Assembly: GCA_017549285.1 (NCBI GenBank)
Contig: JAFYVE010000046.1
Location: 2,294 to 66,293 of the forward strand
DNA: 64,000 nucleotides
DNA from: Clostridia bacterium
GTDB taxonomy: Bacteria; Bacillota; Clostridia; Oscillospirales; Acutalibacteraceae
Direction of reading: 5' to 3'
Under the pieces are notes generated by a model that did no database searches, was not told where the DNA came from, and saw only the letters and a list, made by a program, of their open reading frames with translations. This document shows, one piece after another, positions 2,241 to 10,128 of the stretch (positions within the stretch are counted from its first letter, which is position 1; every line of letters begins with the position of its first letter). Made by a program: the position numbers and the translations under genes.

Positions 2241-3500
2241 TTGAAACTGACAAAAAAGAAAAAAGTTCTTATCGGTATACTCAGTTCAATTCTTGCTGTT
2301 GTGATTCTTCTTACTGCAATCGGCCCGTATCTGGTGCTTAACGGTGCTCGTCAGCCTGAGGTTGCAGAAAGCTATAATTACAGCGAAAGTTTCCTTTTCA
2401 ATTATGATGATGTCCGAAAAAATATTAACAAACGTGTGAATAAGCTCCGTGCAGACGGTATTACAGTTGAAACAAATGAATTTGCCGTTGATGAGAGCGA
2501 CGGACTTTACATTGACAACATCTATCTCCCCTCATCAAAGGACAGAACAAACCTCATTGTCCTGACAACAGGTGTTCACGGTATGGAGGGTTATATCGGC
2601 TCGGTTATGCTTGATGTGTTCTTTGAAGAGATTTATCCCACACTCGACACGGAAAAAACAGGTATTCTTGTTGTTGCAAACGTCAATCCTTATGGTATGA
2701 AATATATGCGCCGTTACAACGAAAACAATGTTGACCTTAACCGTAATTTCATCATCAACTGGGACAATTTTGACCTTTCATCAAACAAGGATTACCCTGA
2801 AGTAAAGGAGTTTCTTCAGCCTGAAGGAAAAATCGGCAACGCACTCTGGCATGAAGTCGGTTTTTATCTGAGCCTTGCAAAAGAGGCTATCACAAAGGGT
2901 GCAGATAAGGTTTCAGATGCTCTTCTTACGGGTCAGTATGAATATCCCGAAGGTGTTTATTACGGCGGTAACGGCGACGAAAAGTCAACAGCTTATCTCA
3001 AAGGCGTTTTTGACGACTGCCTTGAAGGTGAATACGAAAACATTGTCCACATAGATATCCATTCAGGCTACGGTCCCCGTTATAATATGGTTATTTTCAA
3101 CTCTGTCTATGAAAAAATGACAGAAGCCGAAACAAAAAAGGCATTCGGTTATGACTATGTCATTTCACACGATTCCGAATCATTTTATGCCACAACAGGC
3201 GACACAACAGACTTCTTCTATCGTCTTGCCGAAAAGAAAAACACAGATAAAGAACTTTTCTCAACCTGTTTTGAATTCGGAACAATCGGTGACAGTTTTA
3301 TGGATTCAATTCTTTCACTCAAGTATACCGTTGACGAAAACAGACAGCATTGGTATCCCACGGAGAATAAGGTCACAAGTGAAGTTGTGCGTGAAAATTA
3401 CTATGAACTTTTCTATCCTACAGAAACCGAATGGCGTGAAAAAACAGTTGAAGATTTTATTGCCGCAACAAACGGCGTCCTCGGTGCAAAACTGAAATAA
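2241..3500 (+). CDS. M14-like zinc carboxypeptidase family protein (DUF2817-like), N-terminal membrane anchor
   Basis: Motifs VHGMEGYIGS, NPYGM and NVDLNRNF; hydrophobic N-terminus. Start is ambiguous: TTG 2241 sits 8 nt after GGAG, while the GTG at 2232 overlaps that RBS. Confidence 0.6.
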   Translation: MKLTKKKKVLIGILSSILAVVILLTAIGPYLVLNGARQPEVAESYNYSESFLFNYDDVRKNINKRVNKLRADGITVETNEFAVDESDGLYIDNIYLPSSKDRTNLIVLTTGVHGMEGYIGSVMLDVFFEEIYPTLDTEKTGILVVANVNPYGMKYMRRYNENNVDLNRNFIINWDNFDLSSNKDYPEVKEFLQPEGKIGNALWHEVGFYLSLAKEAITKGADKVSDALLTGQYEYPEGVYYGGNGDEKSTAYLKGVFDDCLEGEYENIVHIDIHSGYGPRYNMVIFNSVYEKMTEAETKKAFGYDYVISHDSESFYATTGDTTDFFYRLAEKKNTDKELFSTCFEFGTIGDSFMDSILSLKYTVDENRQHWYPTENKVTSEVVRENYYELFYPTETEWREKTVEDFIAATNGVLGAKLK

Positions 3501-3507
3501 TCAAACA

Positions 3508-3545
3508 AATCCTTCCGTATTTTTTGCGGAAGGATTTTTGTTTTG
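3508..3545 (+). terminator. Rho-independent terminator
   Basis: Stem atccttccg/cggaaggat followed by tttttgtttt. Confidence 0.8.
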
Positions 3546-3748
3546 TTGTAATGTCTGTCAAACCATGTTATAATAAAAAAATGAGGGTATCAGAAGCAAC
3601 AAGTCTGTTCCTTTTTAAAGGAAACGGGCAATTATCTTATGTACCGTTACATTCTCGGCACCGATATAACAGACGAAATCTCATCGCACTATAAATTCTG
3701 TTCACACTTCAGTTTTTGGCATCGGTACGGTTGAAATATAGAAACTTG

Positions 3749-3778
3749 TTGACAAAACCCTTGTTCATATGTGATAAT
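3749..3778 (+). promoter_or_regulatory. Sigma-A type promoter for the FAD-dependent protein gene
   Basis: TTGACA, 18-nt spacer, then TGtGATAAT (extended -10). Confidence 0.5.
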
Positions 3779-3844
3779 ATTTCCGGCACATAAAAAGATT
3801 TTGTATATAACCAACTACTTAAAAAGAAAACAAAAGAGGTTAAA

Positions 3845-5212
3845 ATGATGAATTACGACGTTATTATTGTCGGCGCAGGCCCCGGCGGAATTTTTGCCGC
3901 ATACGAGCTTTCTGAGAGAAGACCCGATCTTAAAATTGCCGTATTCGAGGCAGGACACGCTCTCCACAAAAGAAAATGTCCCATTGACGGTGAAAAAATA
4001 AAAACCTGCATAGGTTGCAAAAGCTGTAGTATTATGAGCGGTTTCGGCGGTGCGGGGGCTTTCTCAGACGGTAAATACAACATCACAAATGACTTCGGCG
4101 GCACACTTTATGAACATCTCGGCAAAAAACAGGCTCTTGACCTGATGCATTATGTTGATAAAATAAATCTCAGATTCGGCGGTGAGGGCACAAAGCTTTA
4201 CTCAACAGCGGGATCACGCTTCAAGACAGTCTGCATTCAGAATGACCTGCATCTTCTTGACGCTTCTGTCCGTCATCTTGGTACAGATATCAACTATATT
4301 GTTCTTGAAAATCTTTATAATTACCTTAAAGATAAGGTTCAGTTTTTCTTTGATACCCATGTTGACACGGTGTCAATGAAAGACGGCAGATACAACATAA
4401 CTACAGGTGACAATACATACACCTGCGAAAAATGTATCATTTCCGTAGGTCGTATCGGAAGCAAATGGATGGAAAATGTCTGTCGTGAACTTAATGTTCC
4501 CACAAAATCAAACCGTGTTGATATCGGTGTCAGAGTTGAACTTCCCGCCGCTGTTTTTGCACATCTTACAGATGAACTTTATGAAAGCAAAATCGTTTAC
4601 CGCACCGAAAAATACGGCGACAGAGTCCGTACATTCTGTATGAATCCCAAGGGCTCCGTTGTTAATGAAAATACAAACGGCATCATCACCGTTAACGGTC
4701 ACAGCTATGAAGACCCTGAAAAGCAGACAGACAACACAAACTTCGCACTGCTTGTTGCCAAGCATTTTTCAGAGCCTTTCAAAGACTCAAACGGCTACGG
4801 TGAATCTATCGCAAGACTCAGCAATATGCTTGGCGGCGGTGTCATTGTCCAGCGTTTCGGTGACCTCATAAGAGGAAGACGTTCAAATGCAAACCGTATA
4901 GAAGAATCATTTGTCACACCCACATTGAATGCAACACCCGGTGACCTCAGCCTTGTTCTTCCCAAGCGTATTCTTGACGGTATTATTGAAATGATTTACG
5001 CCCTTGATAAGGTTGCACCCGGTACAGCAAACGAAGATACACTTCTTTACGGTGTGGAAGTCAAGTTCTACAATATGGAGGTTGACGTTGACAGAAATCT
5101 TCAGACAGATTACGAGGGCCTTTATATCATCGGTGACGGAAGCGGTATCACCCATTCACTTTCACACGCATCTGCAAGCGGCGTCCACGTCGCAAGACAT
5201 ATCTGCGGTTAA
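3845..5212 (+). CDS. FAD-dependent dehydrogenase (COG2509-like)
   Basis: Dinucleotide-binding motif DVIIVGAGPGGIFAAYEL at the N-terminus and IIGDGSG near the C-terminus. RBS GAGG lies 6 nt upstream. Confidence 0.7.
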   Translation: MMNYDVIIVGAGPGGIFAAYELSERRPDLKIAVFEAGHALHKRKCPIDGEKIKTCIGCKSCSIMSGFGGAGAFSDGKYNITNDFGGTLYEHLGKKQALDLMHYVDKINLRFGGEGTKLYSTAGSRFKTVCIQNDLHLLDASVRHLGTDINYIVLENLYNYLKDKVQFFFDTHVDTVSMKDGRYNITTGDNTYTCEKCIISVGRIGSKWMENVCRELNVPTKSNRVDIGVRVELPAAVFAHLTDELYESKIVYRTEKYGDRVRTFCMNPKGSVVNENTNGIITVNGHSYEDPEKQTDNTNFALLVAKHFSEPFKDSNGYGESIARLSNMLGGGVIVQRFGDLIRGRRSNANRIEESFVTPTLNATPGDLSLVLPKRILDGIIEMIYALDKVAPGTANEDTLLYGVEVKFYNMEVDVDRNLQTDYEGLYIIGDGSGITHSLSHASASGVHVARHICG

Positions 5213-5228
5213 AATAATAAAACCATAT

Positions 5229-5266
5229 AAAAAAGATTCCGCCTTATGACGGAATCTTAATTTTTT
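5229..5266. terminator. Bidirectional terminator between convergent genes
   Basis: Stem aagattccg/cggaatctt flanked by an A-run and a T-run. Confidence 0.75.
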
Positions 5267-6605
5267 ATACTGTGAAATTTATTGAAACAGCGTCAGATTT
5301 GTATTTATATGCGCTTTCGGCTGTGACTGTGAGTGTATATGTTTTTCCTTTTTCGAGGATGTCCTTTCCTACGGTAAAGCCGTCTGTCTTTTCATCATCG
5401 ACAATGTAATAGGGAGCGACAAAGTCAGTTTTATAAACTTCTTTGCCCTGCTCATCGGTGATTTTTACGTTATAAGTATGAACGATATAACCATCGGGTA
5501 CCTGAGCCTCTGTGAATGAAATTCTGTAATTGCCGTTTTCGTCGGTTACAACAGAAGCCTCCGTATTTTCGGGGAAAACGGGAGCGTCATCGTGGGCTTT
5601 CATATTTTTGTATGTATAGGCAAAGGTGTCCGTATCGTTTACATTTTCAATGAAATAGTCACAGAAGAATGTGTCTGAAATCAGGTCATAGCCTCTGATT
5701 CTGACTCTGCCGTCATTGTCTGCTTCAACAACACAGAACTGTGCCGCATCTTCATATCTTTCGGGGTGCTGACCTACCATATAATTCTTGTCGGTCTCAA
5801 ATCTCGCCATTGCACCCACACCGACGGATGTATACGAACTCTGATTGATGCTTCTGGGGTCATTCATCGGGAAATGTGAATGTCCCGAGAAATTTATAAC
5901 CTTGCTGTGCCCTGCAAAGACGGGATTAAGCTGAGGTGAGCACCAGAAACTGCTTCCGTAGACGCTGCCGAAAGGATGAGGATGCTGAAAAACAAGAATC
6001 GGTTTGTCACCGGCTGTTTCTTCTGCCTTGTGAATCTCGTCGCTGAGCCATTTTACGCTTTTGGGTGTGAATGTCCACTCTGTCAGCATTCGTTCACCCG
6101 AAAAAGAGATACAGGTAAAGCCATTAATTTCCGTAACCGTGTTAAGACCGTGGGAGAAATGCTTTTCAAACTTTTCCTTGTAGTCGTCGTGCTTGAATTC
6201 GTGATTTCCGCACACATTTATGCAGACGGTTTCTTCCCTGATATGTTCTTTGAGTGTATTCACATAATTCTCATAGTCCTCGTCCGTGCCGATGCTTGTG
6301 AAATCGCCCAGACCGAAAAATCCGTCAACGCCCGCATATACGGGGTCGTTATCAAAAAGAGCATAAGCCGTGTCAATGGCATCTGCAAGATTTTCATTTT
6401 CGTTGTGAGTGTCCGTGTAAACAACAAGTCTTATTGCAGGCTTGAAATCATCAGGCACAACGGGTAAACTTTCCGTCACAGAGCCCTTTGACATCTGTGC
6501 TGCACCCCATAAAAGTGTAACAATACAGCATAAAGCAAGAAAACCTATAATCGTTCCGAAAAAAATACAAAGAACTTTTGCAGTAATTTTAAGTGCTTTT
6601 TTCAT
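5265..6605 (-). CDS. Membrane-anchored/secreted metallophosphoesterase with C-terminal Ig-like region
   Basis: Calcineurin-like motifs DTHNE, GDFTS, GNHEF and GHSHF; hydrophobic N-terminal segment. Confidence 0.75.
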   Translation of the reverse strand: MKKALKITAKVLCIFFGTIIGFLALCCIVTLLWGAAQMSKGSVTESLPVVPDDFKPAIRLVVYTDTHNENENLADAIDTAYALFDNDPVYAGVDGFFGLGDFTSIGTDEDYENYVNTLKEHIREETVCINVCGNHEFKHDDYKEKFEKHFSHGLNTVTEINGFTCISFSGERMLTEWTFTPKSVKWLSDEIHKAEETAGDKPILVFQHPHPFGSVYGSSFWCSPQLNPVFAGHSKVINFSGHSHFPMNDPRSINQSSYTSVGVGAMARFETDKNYMVGQHPERYEDAAQFCVVEADNDGRVRIRGYDLISDTFFCDYFIENVNDTDTFAYTYKNMKAHDDAPVFPENTEASVVTDENGNYRISFTEAQVPDGYIVHTYNVKITDEQGKEVYKTDFVAPYYIVDDEKTDGFTVGKDILEKGKTYTLTVTAESAYKYKSDAVSINFTV

Positions 6606-6738
6606 ATTGAGTCACCCTCTCCTGATTCAATAATATAATTTTATATAAAACATGTCAATATCCGACTCCACGGAAAGTAGGTTGCTGTTTCTATTTGTTT
6701 CTGTTATTATATATTTATAAAATCCAAGGAGAAAAACA

Positions 6739-7323
6739 ATGAACACATATATAACGGGTGCAGTTATAAAGAAACTGCGTGAAGCAAAGGGAATGACACA
6801 GCTTGAACTTGCCGAGGCAACGGGAGTCAGCGATAAAGCCGTGTCAAAATGGGAAACGGCAAAGGGACTGCCCGATATAACCCTTATTGAACCTCTTGCA
6901 AAGGCTCTGTGCGTATCCGTAACGGAACTTATCTCAGGCAATACGGTCACAAACTCAAATATATCATCAAATATACTCCGTTCAAAGTTTTATGTCTGCC
7001 CTGTCTGCGGAAATATCATCCGCACAACGGGTGATGCTGTTATAAGCTGTTGCGGTATAACTCTTCCACCCCTTGAAGCGGAAGAAACAGACGATGCACA
7101 CAGAATAAATGTCGAAAAAGTCGAGGATGAACATTTCATTACCATAAATCACGATATGACGAAGACACATTTCATCTCATTCCTCGCATACCTTACATCA
7201 GACAGAGTGCAGTTTGTCAAATTCTATCCGGAGGGTAATGCCGAAACACGACTGCAGCTCAGAGGAAGAGGATATCTTTATATTTATTGTAATAAACACG
7301 GTCTTATGAAGCAGAAAGTGTAA
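6739..7323 (+). CDS. XRE-family HTH domain fused to a desulfoferrodoxin (2Fe superoxide reductase) module
   Basis: N-terminus IKKLREAKGMTQLELAEATGVSDKAVSKWE. It is followed by CPVCG..(13)..CC (desulforedoxin-type site), then AHRINV, HDMTKTH and YCNKHG, which match the SOR centre II ligands. Confidence 0.75.
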   Translation: MNTYITGAVIKKLREAKGMTQLELAEATGVSDKAVSKWETAKGLPDITLIEPLAKALCVSVTELISGNTVTNSNISSNILRSKFYVCPVCGNIIRTTGDAVISCCGITLPPLEAEETDDAHRINVEKVEDEHFITINHDMTKTHFISFLAYLTSDRVQFVKFYPEGNAETRLQLRGRGYLYIYCNKHGLMKQKV

Positions 7324-7432
7324 ACAACAAATTCTGATTTTCAACATATTTCAGAATACATTCAACTCTTCAGTTATTGAAATACAACCCCCTTTCCTGT
7401 ATAGTATAATCATAATAACAAGGAGTGATTTT

Positions 7433-8209
7433 ATGCTTTCAGCGGGTAACAACATTAAAAGAATGCGCCTTAAAAAGGGATTGACGCAGGAGGAGGTTGC
7501 ACTTCACCTCGGTGTTTCATTTCAGTCCGTCAGCAAATGGGAAAGAGGAGACGGCTATCCCGATATTGAAATGCTTCCTGCAATTGCAAATTATTTCGGA
7601 ATAAGTGTTGACGAATTGCTGGGTGTCAGTGAACAGACAAAAAAAGAAAAGTATGATGAAATCAACTCGGAATGGGCATACAATAACAAAAGCGGTTTCC
7701 ATTCAGAGAATGTAACACTTATGCGTGATGCCCTGAGAAAGTTTCCGAATGATGCACTTCTTCTCGTTCAGCTTTCAACTTCTCTTGAGAAAATTGACGG
7801 AACCGAGGAAGAAAAAGACAGGTATTTAAGGGAATCAATTGCCGTTCAGGAACAGATTATAAAGTATTGTGATGATTGTGAGGTCCGTGGTGCTACACTT
7901 TACAATATTTGTTTTGCATATAAGAAAATCGGCAACATTGATAAAGCAATTGAACAGGCAAAGAAACTCCCGAATCTTTATAAAGGACGGGAGAATGCCC
8001 TTGTTTATTTCCTTGAAGGCGAGGAGAAACATGATGTGGCAAAGGAAGCACTCAAACCCCTTGCATGGGGAATTGCCCATCATATGACGGCACTCTCTGA
8101 AACGGAAAATAATCCGATTTATAAGAAAAAGGCGGCAGAAATTATTGATATTCTTTTCGGTGATGATAAAGATGAATTTATCACCAGGATTAGCGAAAGT
8201 CTGAATTAA
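7433..8209 (+). CDS. XRE-family transcriptional regulator with helical/TPR-like C-terminal domain
   Basis: IKRMRLKKGLTQEEVALHLGVSFQSVSKWERG; helical repeat-like remainder; RBS AAGGAG. Confidence 0.7.
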   Translation: MLSAGNNIKRMRLKKGLTQEEVALHLGVSFQSVSKWERGDGYPDIEMLPAIANYFGISVDELLGVSEQTKKEKYDEINSEWAYNNKSGFHSENVTLMRDALRKFPNDALLLVQLSTSLEKIDGTEEEKDRYLRESIAVQEQIIKYCDDCEVRGATLYNICFAYKKIGNIDKAIEQAKKLPNLYKGRENALVYFLEGEEKHDVAKEALKPLAWGIAHHMTALSETENNPIYKKKAAEIIDILFGDDKDEFITRISESLN

Positions 8210-8263: not shown

Positions 8264-8767
8264 ATGATTATTCTCATAACAGGAGCTTCCCACACGGGCA
8301 AAACCGCATTGGCACAGAAGCTTCTTGAAAAATATAAATATCCTTATCTTTCAATTGACCACCTGAAAATGGGGTTGATACGAAGCGGTAATACGGAGCT
8401 TAATCCTACGAGTGATGACACACTTTTAACGGAATATCTGTGGAAAATCGTTCGTGAAATGATAAAAACAGCCGTCGAAAACAATCAGAATCTGATTGTT
8501 GAGGGGTGTTATATCCCGTCTGACTGGAGAACCGGTTTTACGGAAGAATATCTCGGAGATATCATATGTATCTGTCTTGTTATGACAGAAAAATATATAA
8601 GAAACCATTTTGATGATATTAAAAAATACGAAAACGTTATTGAACGCAGACTGTATGATGACTGCACGCAGGAAGAATTGCTGAAAGACAATGCTTACTA
8701 TTACAAGAACTTCGGTACAGACTGTGTTATAATTGATGAAACTTATAATTTTGAATTAAATATCTGA
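8264..8767 (+). CDS. P-loop NTPase / small-molecule kinase-like protein
   Basis: Walker A ITGASHTGKT at residues 5-14; ~19 kDa size typical of nucleotide/2-phosphoglycerate kinase-like folds. Confidence 0.55.
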   Translation: MIILITGASHTGKTALAQKLLEKYKYPYLSIDHLKMGLIRSGNTELNPTSDDTLLTEYLWKIVREMIKTAVENNQNLIVEGCYIPSDWRTGFTEEYLGDIICICLVMTEKYIRNHFDDIKKYENVIERRLYDDCTQEELLKDNAYYYKNFGTDCVIIDETYNFELNI

Positions 8768-8829
8768 TTTAAATTTTATCCGTTTTGATGTTACAATTTC
8801 AGGGCATAATGAATTCAGAGGTGTTTTTT

Positions 8830-10128
8830 ATGAATTCGTTATGGAATGCGACTGCACAAAAAGGCAGTTTTCCCGTGCTTGAAGGTGACATCAGAACGGA
8901 TGTTGTTATAGTCGGAGGCGGACTTGCAGGTGTTATGTGTCTGAAAGAACTGAATGACAGAGGAGTTGACTGTGTTCTTCTTGAGGCGAAAACAATCGGT
9001 TCCGGTGTTACGGCAAACACAACGGCAAAAATAACATTTCAGCACGGGCTGATTTACGATAAACTTATAAATAAATTAGGTGCGGAAAAAGCAGGGATGT
9101 ACCTTTCCGCAAACAGAAATGCCCTTGCAAAAATAAAAAAAATGTCACAGGAGTACCCCTGCGACCTTGAAGAAAAGGATGCTTTTGTTTATTCTTCGGA
9201 TGACCGTGAAAAGATTGAAAAAGAAATACGAGCCTATGAAAAGCTCGGAGTTAATGCATCATTCTTTGATGACATTCCGTTACCTGTCAGGTGTGCAGGG
9301 GCAGTAAAAATAAAGAATCAGGCTCAGTTTCATCCCTTGAAATTTATGTACAGTGTGGCAGAAAATCTGAAAATCTATGAAAACTCAAAGGTGACTGAGT
9401 TTCTTCCGGGTAAAGTAAAATGTGAAAAGGGAAGTGTTACTGCCAAGAAAATCATTATAGCAACACATTTCCCCATACTCAACAAGCACGGAGCTTTTTC
9501 GCTTAAACTTTATCAGCATCGTTCATATGTTACGGCAATTGACAATGCTCCCGACATAAACGGAATGTATCTTGACGAAAAGGAAAACGGGTTTTCTTTC
9601 AGAAATTATAAAAATCTGCTCCTTGTGGGCGGTGGTGACCACAGAACGGGTAAAACGGGCGGTTCATATAATGTTCTCTATGATTTCTGCAGAAAGAATT
9701 ATCCCCGTTCGTCTGTTAAATATAATTTTGCAACACAGGATTGTATGACCCTTGACGGTATGCCTTATATCGGCAGATATTCAGGCAGTTCTCAGGATAT
9801 TTATGTTGCAACGGGTTTCAATAAATGGGGAATGACATCTTCACTTGTTGCGGCAGACATACTCGGTGATATGGTGACGGGCAGAAAGAACGATTATCAG
9901 GAGCTTTTTGCTCCCGACCGTTCTGTTCTGCATCCTCAGCTTTTTGCAAATATTTTTCATTCTTTTATGGGGTTTATTACACCTACAGTACCAAGATGTC
10001 CGCATCTCGGTTGTGCCCTGAAATACAACAAGGAGGAACATTCATGGGATTGTCCTTGTCACGGGTCAAGGTTTTCTGAAAACGGTAAACTTATTGACAA
10101 TCCTGCAACAGATGATCTGAAAAAATGA
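8830..10128 (+). CDS. FAD-dependent oxidoreductase with C-terminal Rieske [2Fe-2S] domain
   Basis: DVVIVGGGLAGV at the N-terminus; CPHLGC..(17)..CPCHGSRF Rieske motif at the C-terminus. ATG 8830 lies 7 nt after GAGGTG. Confidence 0.8.
   Translation: MNSLWNATAQKGSFPVLEGDIRTDVVIVGGGLAGVMCLKELNDRGVDCVLLEAKTIGSGVTANTTAKITFQHGLIYDKLINKLGAEKAGMYLSANRNALAKIKKMSQEYPCDLEEKDAFVYSSDDREKIEKEIRAYEKLGVNASFFDDIPLPVRCAGAVKIKNQAQFHPLKFMYSVAENLKIYENSKVTEFLPGKVKCEKGSVTAKKIIIATHFPILNKHGAFSLKLYQHRSYVTAIDNAPDINGMYLDEKENGFSFRNYKNLLLVGGGDHRTGKTGGSYNVLYDFCRKNYPRSSVKYNFATQDCMTLDGMPYIGRYSGSSQDIYVATGFNKWGMTSSLVAADILGDMVTGRKNDYQELFAPDRSVLHPQLFANIFHSFMGFITPTVPRCPHLGCALKYNKEEHSWDCPCHGSRFSENGKLIDNPATDDLKK

Follow-up and report, generated by a model that had tools for sequence, protein, structure and literature searches.

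The closest described relatives of the protein analysed here belong to a class named HTH-Dx-SOR, which was defined in SORGOdb in 2011, where 19 such proteins were catalogued without a function and their Cys4 motif was given as CXXCX15CC (Lucchetti-Miganeh et al., PMC3116461). Our full-text literature searches found no experimental study of any HTH-Dx-SOR protein, which agrees with the earlier note on this DNA, whose author was aware of no characterised example. Two other leads taken from the literature were rejected, as TrtA of Treponema denticola, an XRE protein of 104 aa, lacks a desulfoferrodoxin (Dfx) module and OseR of C. difficile is a member of the Spx family.

The Dfx proteins, or two-iron superoxide reductases (2Fe-SORs), of Desulfovibrio desulfuricans and Desulfoarculus baarsii (1dfx, 2ji1, 2ji2 and 1vzg) have a two-domain fold and nine metal ligands that are shared with the protein encoded in the window, i.e. 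in the whole 64,000-nucleotide stretch of DNA that was analysed. The window protein differs from them in its additional N-terminal helix-turn-helix (HTH) domain, an identity of only 21-27%, a Cys4 loop that is two residues shorter, the sequence DDA-H in place of the EKH motif, and a score far below the cut-off of the Dfx profile TIGR00320. Phage repressors of the XRE type (P22 c2, 434 cI and lambda cI) share the fold of the HTH domain, with a target TM-score of 0.80-0.88 for 3jxb and 1adr in Foldseek, and they bind as dimers to a palindrome at their own promoter, as is proposed below for the window protein. The candidate site in the window, centred near -42, recalls OR2 at PRM. On the other hand, the C-terminal domain of the window protein is a metalloprotein module and not a LexA/cI-type domain or a simple helical dimeriser, and the half-sites lie closer together.

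In SoxR, PerR, FNR and IscR, the activity on DNA is governed by a bound iron centre, through its redox state or its occupancy. These regulators are functional analogues only; they are not homologous to the window protein and have other DNA-binding folds and metal sites. To our knowledge, none of them uses a SOR-type Fe(His)4Cys site or a desulforedoxin Fe(Cys)4 site, and we know of little that would explain superoxide sensing in strictly anaerobic Clostridia, unlike the sensing of H2O2 (PerR) or NADH (Rex). PutA, a redox enzyme, represses its own operon by means of a DNA-binding domain that is part of the same protein. Its logic resembles that of one of the explanations weighed below, although its folds and chemistry are unrelated to those of the window protein, whose enzyme activity is putative.

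New in comparison with the SORGOdb catalogue are the operator-like element, the loss of the catalytic lysine, the decay of centre II as opposed to the conserved Cys4 site, and the coexistence of the fusion with canonical SORs. In this very widespread family of gut and rumen anaerobes a DNA-binding domain is joined to superoxide-reactive iron chemistry, and whether the protein is a sensor or an enzyme is directly testable, given the conserved 18-nt candidate operator, natural variants with centre II either intact or decayed, and at least one carrier in culture.

Domain composition, metal ligands and predicted dimer

The fusion gene (Table 1) encodes a well-formed member of the HTH-Dx-SOR class, with the same order of parts, i.e. 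an N-terminal HTH domain, a desulforedoxin-type Cys4 domain and SOR centre II. All features of the class were found in the window protein: the HTH domain, the Cys4 site (with X13 and not X15 between its cysteine pairs, and with the Dx N-domain profile PF06397 below threshold at 14.7 bits versus 23) and the four histidines and one cysteine of centre II. The architecture is not a discovery, having been a SORGOdb class since 2011, and it is very common: in an exhaustive search of 50%-identity representatives, 194 clusters passed E<=1e-30, and a scan of one genome per species gave at least 555 matches.

Table 1. Coordinates of the fusion gene, its domains and its upstream signals within the window
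Feature	Position	Strand	Description and basis
Operator-like element TCCACGGAAAGTAGGTTG	6667..6684	+	18 nt; conserved upstream block in orthologues
Inferred sigma-A promoter	6682..6710	+	-35 TTGCTG (6682-6687), 17-nt spacer, TGn and -10 TATTAT (TGn-TATTAT 6702-6710); read from sequence
Ribosome-binding site AAGGAG	6726..6731	+	7 nt before ATG; read from sequence
Fusion gene (HTH-Dx-SOR)	6739..7323	+	194 aa plus stop, ATG start; ORF list and sequence
XRE/Cro-C1 helix-turn-helix domain, residues 10-64	6766..6930	+	Pfam HTH_3, 53 bits
Desulforedoxin-like Cys4 domain, residues ~83-112	6985..7074	+	C87, C90, C104, C105 (CX2CX13CC); aligns to C9, C12, C28, C29 of 1dfx
SOR centre II-like beta-sandwich, residues ~113-194	7075..7320	+	H121, H138, H144, C184, H187; no Lys before H121; PF01880, ligand alignment to 1dfx and 2ji2, fold

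The protein is a fusion of an XRE HTH domain to a diverged two-iron SOR module. This is in essence what the earlier note had proposed, and it is confirmed by the HTH_3 match (53 bits), the PF01880 match (22.8 bits) and the 2Fe-SOR fold. The HTH domain matches the P22 c2 repressor both by sequence (phmmer against PDB) and by fold (Foldseek), and its positions W38, E39, P45 and D46 do not vary among the 36 family proteins of an alignment whose mean column identity is 47%. The Desulfoferrodox profile PF01880 covers residues 135-192 and barely passes its cut-off of 22.2 bits. The NCBIfam profile TIGR00320 (dfx_rbo) aligns end to end (positions 5-124 of its 125 on residues 82-192); its score of about 37 bits (37.2), however, does not reach the equivalog cut-off of 146.9. 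Among PDB chains the best phmmer match was 1dfx_A (E 4.5e-7, residues 83-191 on 5-122), and the D. baarsii SOR entries gave an E-value of ~1e-6. An AlphaFold2 model computed from the 36-sequence alignment (mean pLDDT 92.7) is predicted to adopt the two-domain Dfx fold, its top Foldseek matches being the 2Fe-SORs 2ji2, 2ji1, 1dfx and 1vzg (target TM-score 0.72-0.73, E 1e-9).

In the phmmer alignments, all nine metal ligands of the fusion protein are positionally equivalent to those of solved Dfx structures: C87, C90, C104 and C105 (CPVC and CC) align on the Cys4 site, H121 on the first histidine of centre II, H138 and H144 (HDMTKTH) on HPMEEKH, and C184 and H187 (CNKHG) on CNLHG. The claim that every metal ligand of desulfoferrodoxin is present in order thus holds, and a check of their positions revealed no ligand out of register with Dfx; the spacing of the histidine pair, which had been given as H-x6-H, is actually H-x5-H, as in HPMEEKH itself. 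The Cys4 spacing of CX2CX13CC is two residues shorter than the canonical CX2CX15CC.

The module had also been described as complete, which is correct as far as the ligands are concerned. Otherwise the word overstates its state, because the catalytic lysine is missing and the score is far below the Dfx equivalog cut-off. In SOR enzymology, the lysine of the EKH motif steers superoxide to the iron and helps to protonate the peroxo intermediate. The Glu-Lys of this motif is replaced by Asp-Ala in the fusion protein (DDA-H, within the acidic loop EAEETDDAH), and therefore the catalytic lysine is gone. The residue before the first histidine is lysine in only two of 72 family representatives, and is usually Asp, Glu or Ala in an acidic loop.

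Dfx/2Fe-SOR proteins form homodimers through the Dx domain and the beta-sandwich, and the same arrangement is predicted for the window protein. A two-copy prediction of the fusion protein scored 0.80, compared with 0.00 for the best of three controls, a pass that may reflect only likeness to known structures, because Dfx homodimers have already been solved. Of 30 proteins solved as pairs of one chain, 20 attained the mark used for this score, as did one of 23 that were solved as single chains. Contact agreement among the dimer runs was at least 78% and the partner pLDDT at least 79. The predicted interface comprises residues 72-79, 87, 90-104 and 155-164, which belong to the Cys4 domain and a strand of the beta-sandwich, as in Dfx homodimers. 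If the dimer model is right, the conserved Cys4 site would lie in the interface, where its metal or redox state could influence how far apart the two HTH domains stand.

Conservation in the family and coexistence with canonical SORs

The best 80 of the at least 555 species-genome relatives are mostly animal-gut MAGs of Acutalibacteraceae, Oscillospiraceae and Faecousia, and a cultured carrier is Anaerolentibacter hominis CSJ-1, whose protein is 66% identical to that of the window. A full-length copy of the fusion was present in 19 of 401 genomes sampled evenly across the phylum. The best 120 of at least 8000 word-indexed matches are all 84-100% identical and 194-199 aa long; those that bear a name are annotated simply as 'helix-turn-helix domain-containing protein', from MAGs of Clostridia, Ruminococcaceae or Acutalibacteraceae. 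Identical or near-identical fusion proteins were found in many gut metagenomes, and the DNA of the window is present in bovine, pig and other gut metagenomes.

Conservation was counted over 72 aligned full-length cluster representatives. C87, C90 and C104 are invariant in all 72, and position 105 is cysteine in 63 and histidine in 9. All five centre II ligands are kept in only 28 of the representatives, and nine more have the last histidine replaced by aspartate; whole sublineages, aligned over the full length, read EHDSQ, EHDSE, THNSN or DHNSK at the five centre II positions. The metal site that is conserved family-wide is thus the Cys4 site and not centre II. As the lysine is mostly absent and centre II is often lost, the family as a whole has been selected for the HTH domain and the Cys4 site and not for efficient SOR catalysis. 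All nine ligands are kept in 119 of 120 homologues of the window clade (at least 84% identity), a pattern which indicates that this clade is still under selection for metal binding at centre II, and the five centre II ligands are kept in 13 of the 19 phylum-wide genomic orthologues.

Five representatives (P0121, P0122, P0124, P0132 and P0191) are 275-488 aa long, and their N-termini match the full 194 aa of the window protein. Their long C-terminal extensions may be further fusions or artefacts of gene calling.

Canonical stand-alone SORs, about 125-137 aa long and one or two per genome, are encoded in 16 of the 18 other genomes with a fusion; they score 64-111 bits on PF01880, compared with 19-28 bits for the fusions. 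Since a canonical SOR is present in so many of these carriers, the fusion is not needed as the SOR of the cell. One genome of the same family, which is 100% complete, encodes two stand-alone SORs in addition to the fusion. In the 88%-complete genome to which the window belongs, we found neither another PF01880 match nor a Fe/Mn SOD, and the genome has a rubrerythrin and a rubredoxin. At this level of completeness, a stand-alone sor gene may simply be unassembled.

Candidate operator and possible roles of the fusion protein

The 140 nt before the start codon were compared at 79 loci, i.e. the window and 78 of the 80 closest loci (62-86% protein identity). All 79 share the consensus TCyACG-N3-CGTAGGTTG, which overlaps the -35 hexamer, whereas the other upstream DNA is unalignable; 15 of the 18 positions of the element contain 0.95-2.0 bits of information (most core positions 1.6-2.0) versus 0.1-0.5 in the flanks. 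The core is a palindrome of 13 bp with arms of 5+5, C(C/T)ACG-N3-CGTAG; in the window it is imperfect (CCACG / AGTAG), occupies positions 6668-6680 and is centred ~43 nt before the inferred transcription start. With 8 bp between their centres, the half-sites are closely spaced for an XRE dimer. The last three bases of the element are the TTG of the -35 hexamer, and a -10-like hexamer follows this TTG in 76 of the 79 loci (after 17 nt in 75 and 16 nt in one), being exactly TATAAT in 45. AAGGAG-like sites stand at the same place in orthologues as in the window.

When the genome of the window was scanned with a weight matrix, the site at the fusion promoter scored 27.1 bits and was the sole site above 20, the next best reaching 18.0. 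All five exact matches to the pattern in the 19 carrier genomes (13 families) lie just upstream of the fusion gene, and one-mismatch matches elsewhere in these genomes were no commoner than those to a reversed-pattern control. Most phylum-wide orthologues carry the element or a variant of it; none was found in the 130 nt upstream in three of the 19. Five orthologues (37-45% identity), some of them with a decayed centre II, have a right-half variant resembling TCTACG-N3-CGTTGATTG at the same place. Two protein clades with different right halves of the element also have different N-terminal arms and different loops after the recognition helix, a correspondence limited to these two clades. The element was not found near 17 canonical sor genes, where the best full-motif scores were -7 to 6.6 bits (95th percentile of the null 5.6, maximum 12.7), or near the rubrerythrin and rubredoxin genes of the window's own genome. 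Because the element accompanies a single gene across unrelated neighbourhoods and is not seen elsewhere, the simplest view is that it is the operator of the fusion product itself, and from this co-inheritance we infer that the fusion protein probably binds it.

At one of the loci (L051, G357:C200) a canonical stand-alone Dfx gene (684-1061) lies ~2.4 kb upstream of the fusion gene (3428-4015), and the operator-like element, here TCTACTCAGCGTAGGTAG, stands only before the fusion gene and not before the canonical one. The genome of the window contains only two other exact matches to the core, one of which is inside a coding region. The intergenic one, CCACGAATCGTAG (contig C53, ~8619, minus strand; locus L150), precedes a flavodoxin-like gene (Flavodoxin_5, 33.6 bits) by ~100 nt and is followed immediately by a terminator-like hairpin; it does not stand at a -35. 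The same genome encodes a paralogous 204-aa XRE protein (contig C26:111157-111838; locus L152), for which membrane helices are predicted and whose C-terminus has a CxxC...CxxC ribbon. The -35 of its own promoter-like site is overlapped by a related element, TCAACCGACAGTATGTTG (14.2 bits). An element at the gene's own -35 may be a general layout for the XRE HTH subfamily to which the fusion and this paralogue belong.

We lean towards the view that the fusion protein is an autoregulated dimeric XRE regulator, in which the Dx-SOR module both dimerises the protein and senses iron/metal or oxidant/redox state. A homodimer held by the Cys4 (Dx) domain and the beta-sandwich strand would bind the 13-bp palindrome at the upstream edge of its own -35 and would in this way control transcription of the fusion gene. 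A changed iron occupancy or oxidation state would then alter the geometry of the dimer and its affinity for DNA, the change being sensed at the interface Fe(Cys)4 site and, in the window clade, perhaps also at the solvent-exposed Fe(His)4Cys site. As the gene has a conserved candidate docking site on its own promoter, it would most likely switch its own expression by iron or oxidant state. Repression seems somewhat likelier than activation, because the promoter, with its TTG, 17-nt spacer and near-consensus -10, looks competent unaided. In this proposal we infer that the protein binds the element, which way it regulates, whether it responds to oxidant or to iron, and any targets other than its own gene.

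The earlier note had suggested a redox-sensing transcription factor, and the regulatory part of this suggestion gains support from the intact HTH domain, the operator-like palindrome at the gene's own promoter and the canonical SORs in most carriers. As to the sensing itself, it is possible, though in our opinion doubtful, that the Fe(His)4Cys centre and the interface Fe(Cys)4 site have jointly been repurposed to sense superoxide or O2 directly, with oxidation of the iron releasing the dimer from its operator or re-setting it there. If true, sensing through the active site of superoxide reductase would be known for a transcription factor for the first time, and strict gut anaerobes would possess a self-contained oxidant switch consisting of one gene.

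Three observations speak against an autoregulated regulator. The genome contains no second strong site, and none was found near the 17 sor genes or the rubrerythrin and rubredoxin genes; a regulator whose sole target is itself is unsatisfying, and this is the weak point of every regulatory reading. Furthermore, the strict retention of centre II in the clade (119/120), along with the lack of another SOR or Fe/Mn SOD in the 88%-complete genome, fits a catalytic role. The third is the close spacing of the half-sites described above.

A catalytic role is assumed in the explanation that survives best among the alternatives, according to which the protein is a bifunctional PutA-like enzyme, i.e. a working SOR of low efficiency that carries its own repressor domain, with its own promoter as the sole target and thus a one-gene feedback on oxidant load. 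The equivalence of all centre I and centre II ligands to those of Dfx, and their maintenance in all but one of the 120 close homologues, would be expected of an enzyme. So would a genome in which the fusion is the sole PF01880 match and no Fe/Mn SOD was found, although a stand-alone sor gene may be missing from the assembly. The same genome encodes rubredoxin, the usual electron donor of SOR, and an operator confined to the gene's own promoter, with no regulon detected, agrees with feedback of this kind. However, the lysine of EKH has become alanine in the acidic loop, the module scores 37 bits against the 146.9 of the Dfx equivalog, 16 of the 18 other carriers already have a canonical SOR, and many family members that lost centre II ligands still keep the HTH domain, the Cys4 site and the operator. 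We consider the enzyme rather unlikely.

The dispensability of the centre II ligands in many lineages would also be understandable if the Dx-SOR module were only a structural scaffold for dimerisation, with metal sites that are structural (e.g. Zn or Fe at Cys4) and transmit no signal, so that the protein would act as a constitutive XRE autorepressor. The predicted interface through the Cys4 domain is in line with this, even if it may reflect likeness to solved Dfx dimers, and the paralogous XRE protein of contig C26, which has a similar element at its -35 and an unrelated C-terminus, suggests that the autoregulatory layout is generic. On the other hand, the five centre II ligands are retained jointly in 28 of the 72 representatives, which are ~40-60% identical to the protein of the window, and in 13 of the 19 genomic orthologues. 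Joint retention at such divergence argues for selection on metal binding, which a pure scaffold would not need, and makes this explanation distinctly improbable.

It is very improbable that the element upstream belongs to another, unlinked factor or represents an extended -35 of an unusual kind. In favour of such a view, binding of the element by the fusion protein is deduced from sequence, its 3' part (TTG) is simply the -35, and the palindrome is short and imperfect in the window, but in the genomes searched it stands at no other promoter, so that an unlinked factor would have a regulon of one gene, which would always be the fusion gene, and it accompanies this gene through wholly different neighbourhoods, with a right half that varies along with the clade-specific N-terminal arm and the loop after the recognition helix (in two clades, which is the weak point of this argument).

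Gene neighbourhood

Clustering of the ORFs around the 19 phylum-wide loci yielded only generic ABC ATPases, and no conserved neighbours were found. The earlier note had drawn attention to a second XRE regulator and a P-loop kinase directly downstream of the fusion gene; their position is as described, but a link to the fusion gene finds no support, as the arrangement is not conserved in relatives. In tblastn searches with the neighbours from the window, the second XRE gene was found in none of the 80 close loci, the P-loop kinase was detected in four, at other positions, and the metallophosphoesterase-like neighbour in two. The Rieske-FAD neighbour occurs in one of the 80 close loci and in one of the 19 phylum-wide loci. 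The downstream XRE/TPR-like regulator and the P-loop kinase are incidental to the fusion gene.

In the window, the second XRE regulator (7433-8209, plus strand; HTH_3, 64 bits) has a weak TPR-like C-terminus. It is followed on the same strand by a small P-loop kinase-like protein (8264-8767) with weak AAA_33, Zeta-toxin and CPT-like matches, and by a 447-aa FAD-type oxidoreductase (8785-10128) with a C-terminal Rieske-like CPHLGC...CPCHGS motif. The divergent gene on the other side (5265-6605, minus strand) encodes a membrane-anchored protein of 446 aa, in which calcineurin-like phosphoesterase motifs were recognised by eye (DTHNE, GD, GNHEF and GHSH); it has an Ig-like C-terminus, and Pfam gave only weak Ig matches. 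This gene has a strong promoter-like sequence, TTGACA-17-TATTAT (6658-6630, minus strand), 9 nt from the operator-like element. Its ribosome-binding site and start codon are bracketed by an inverted repeat at 6605-6632, TATTGAGTCA / TGATTCAATA, whose arms are 90% complementary and separated by a loop of 8 nt. Finally, the gap that separates the fusion gene from the next XRE gene has a copy of a 19-nt direct repeat on either side (7323-7341 and 7414-7432, 74% identity).
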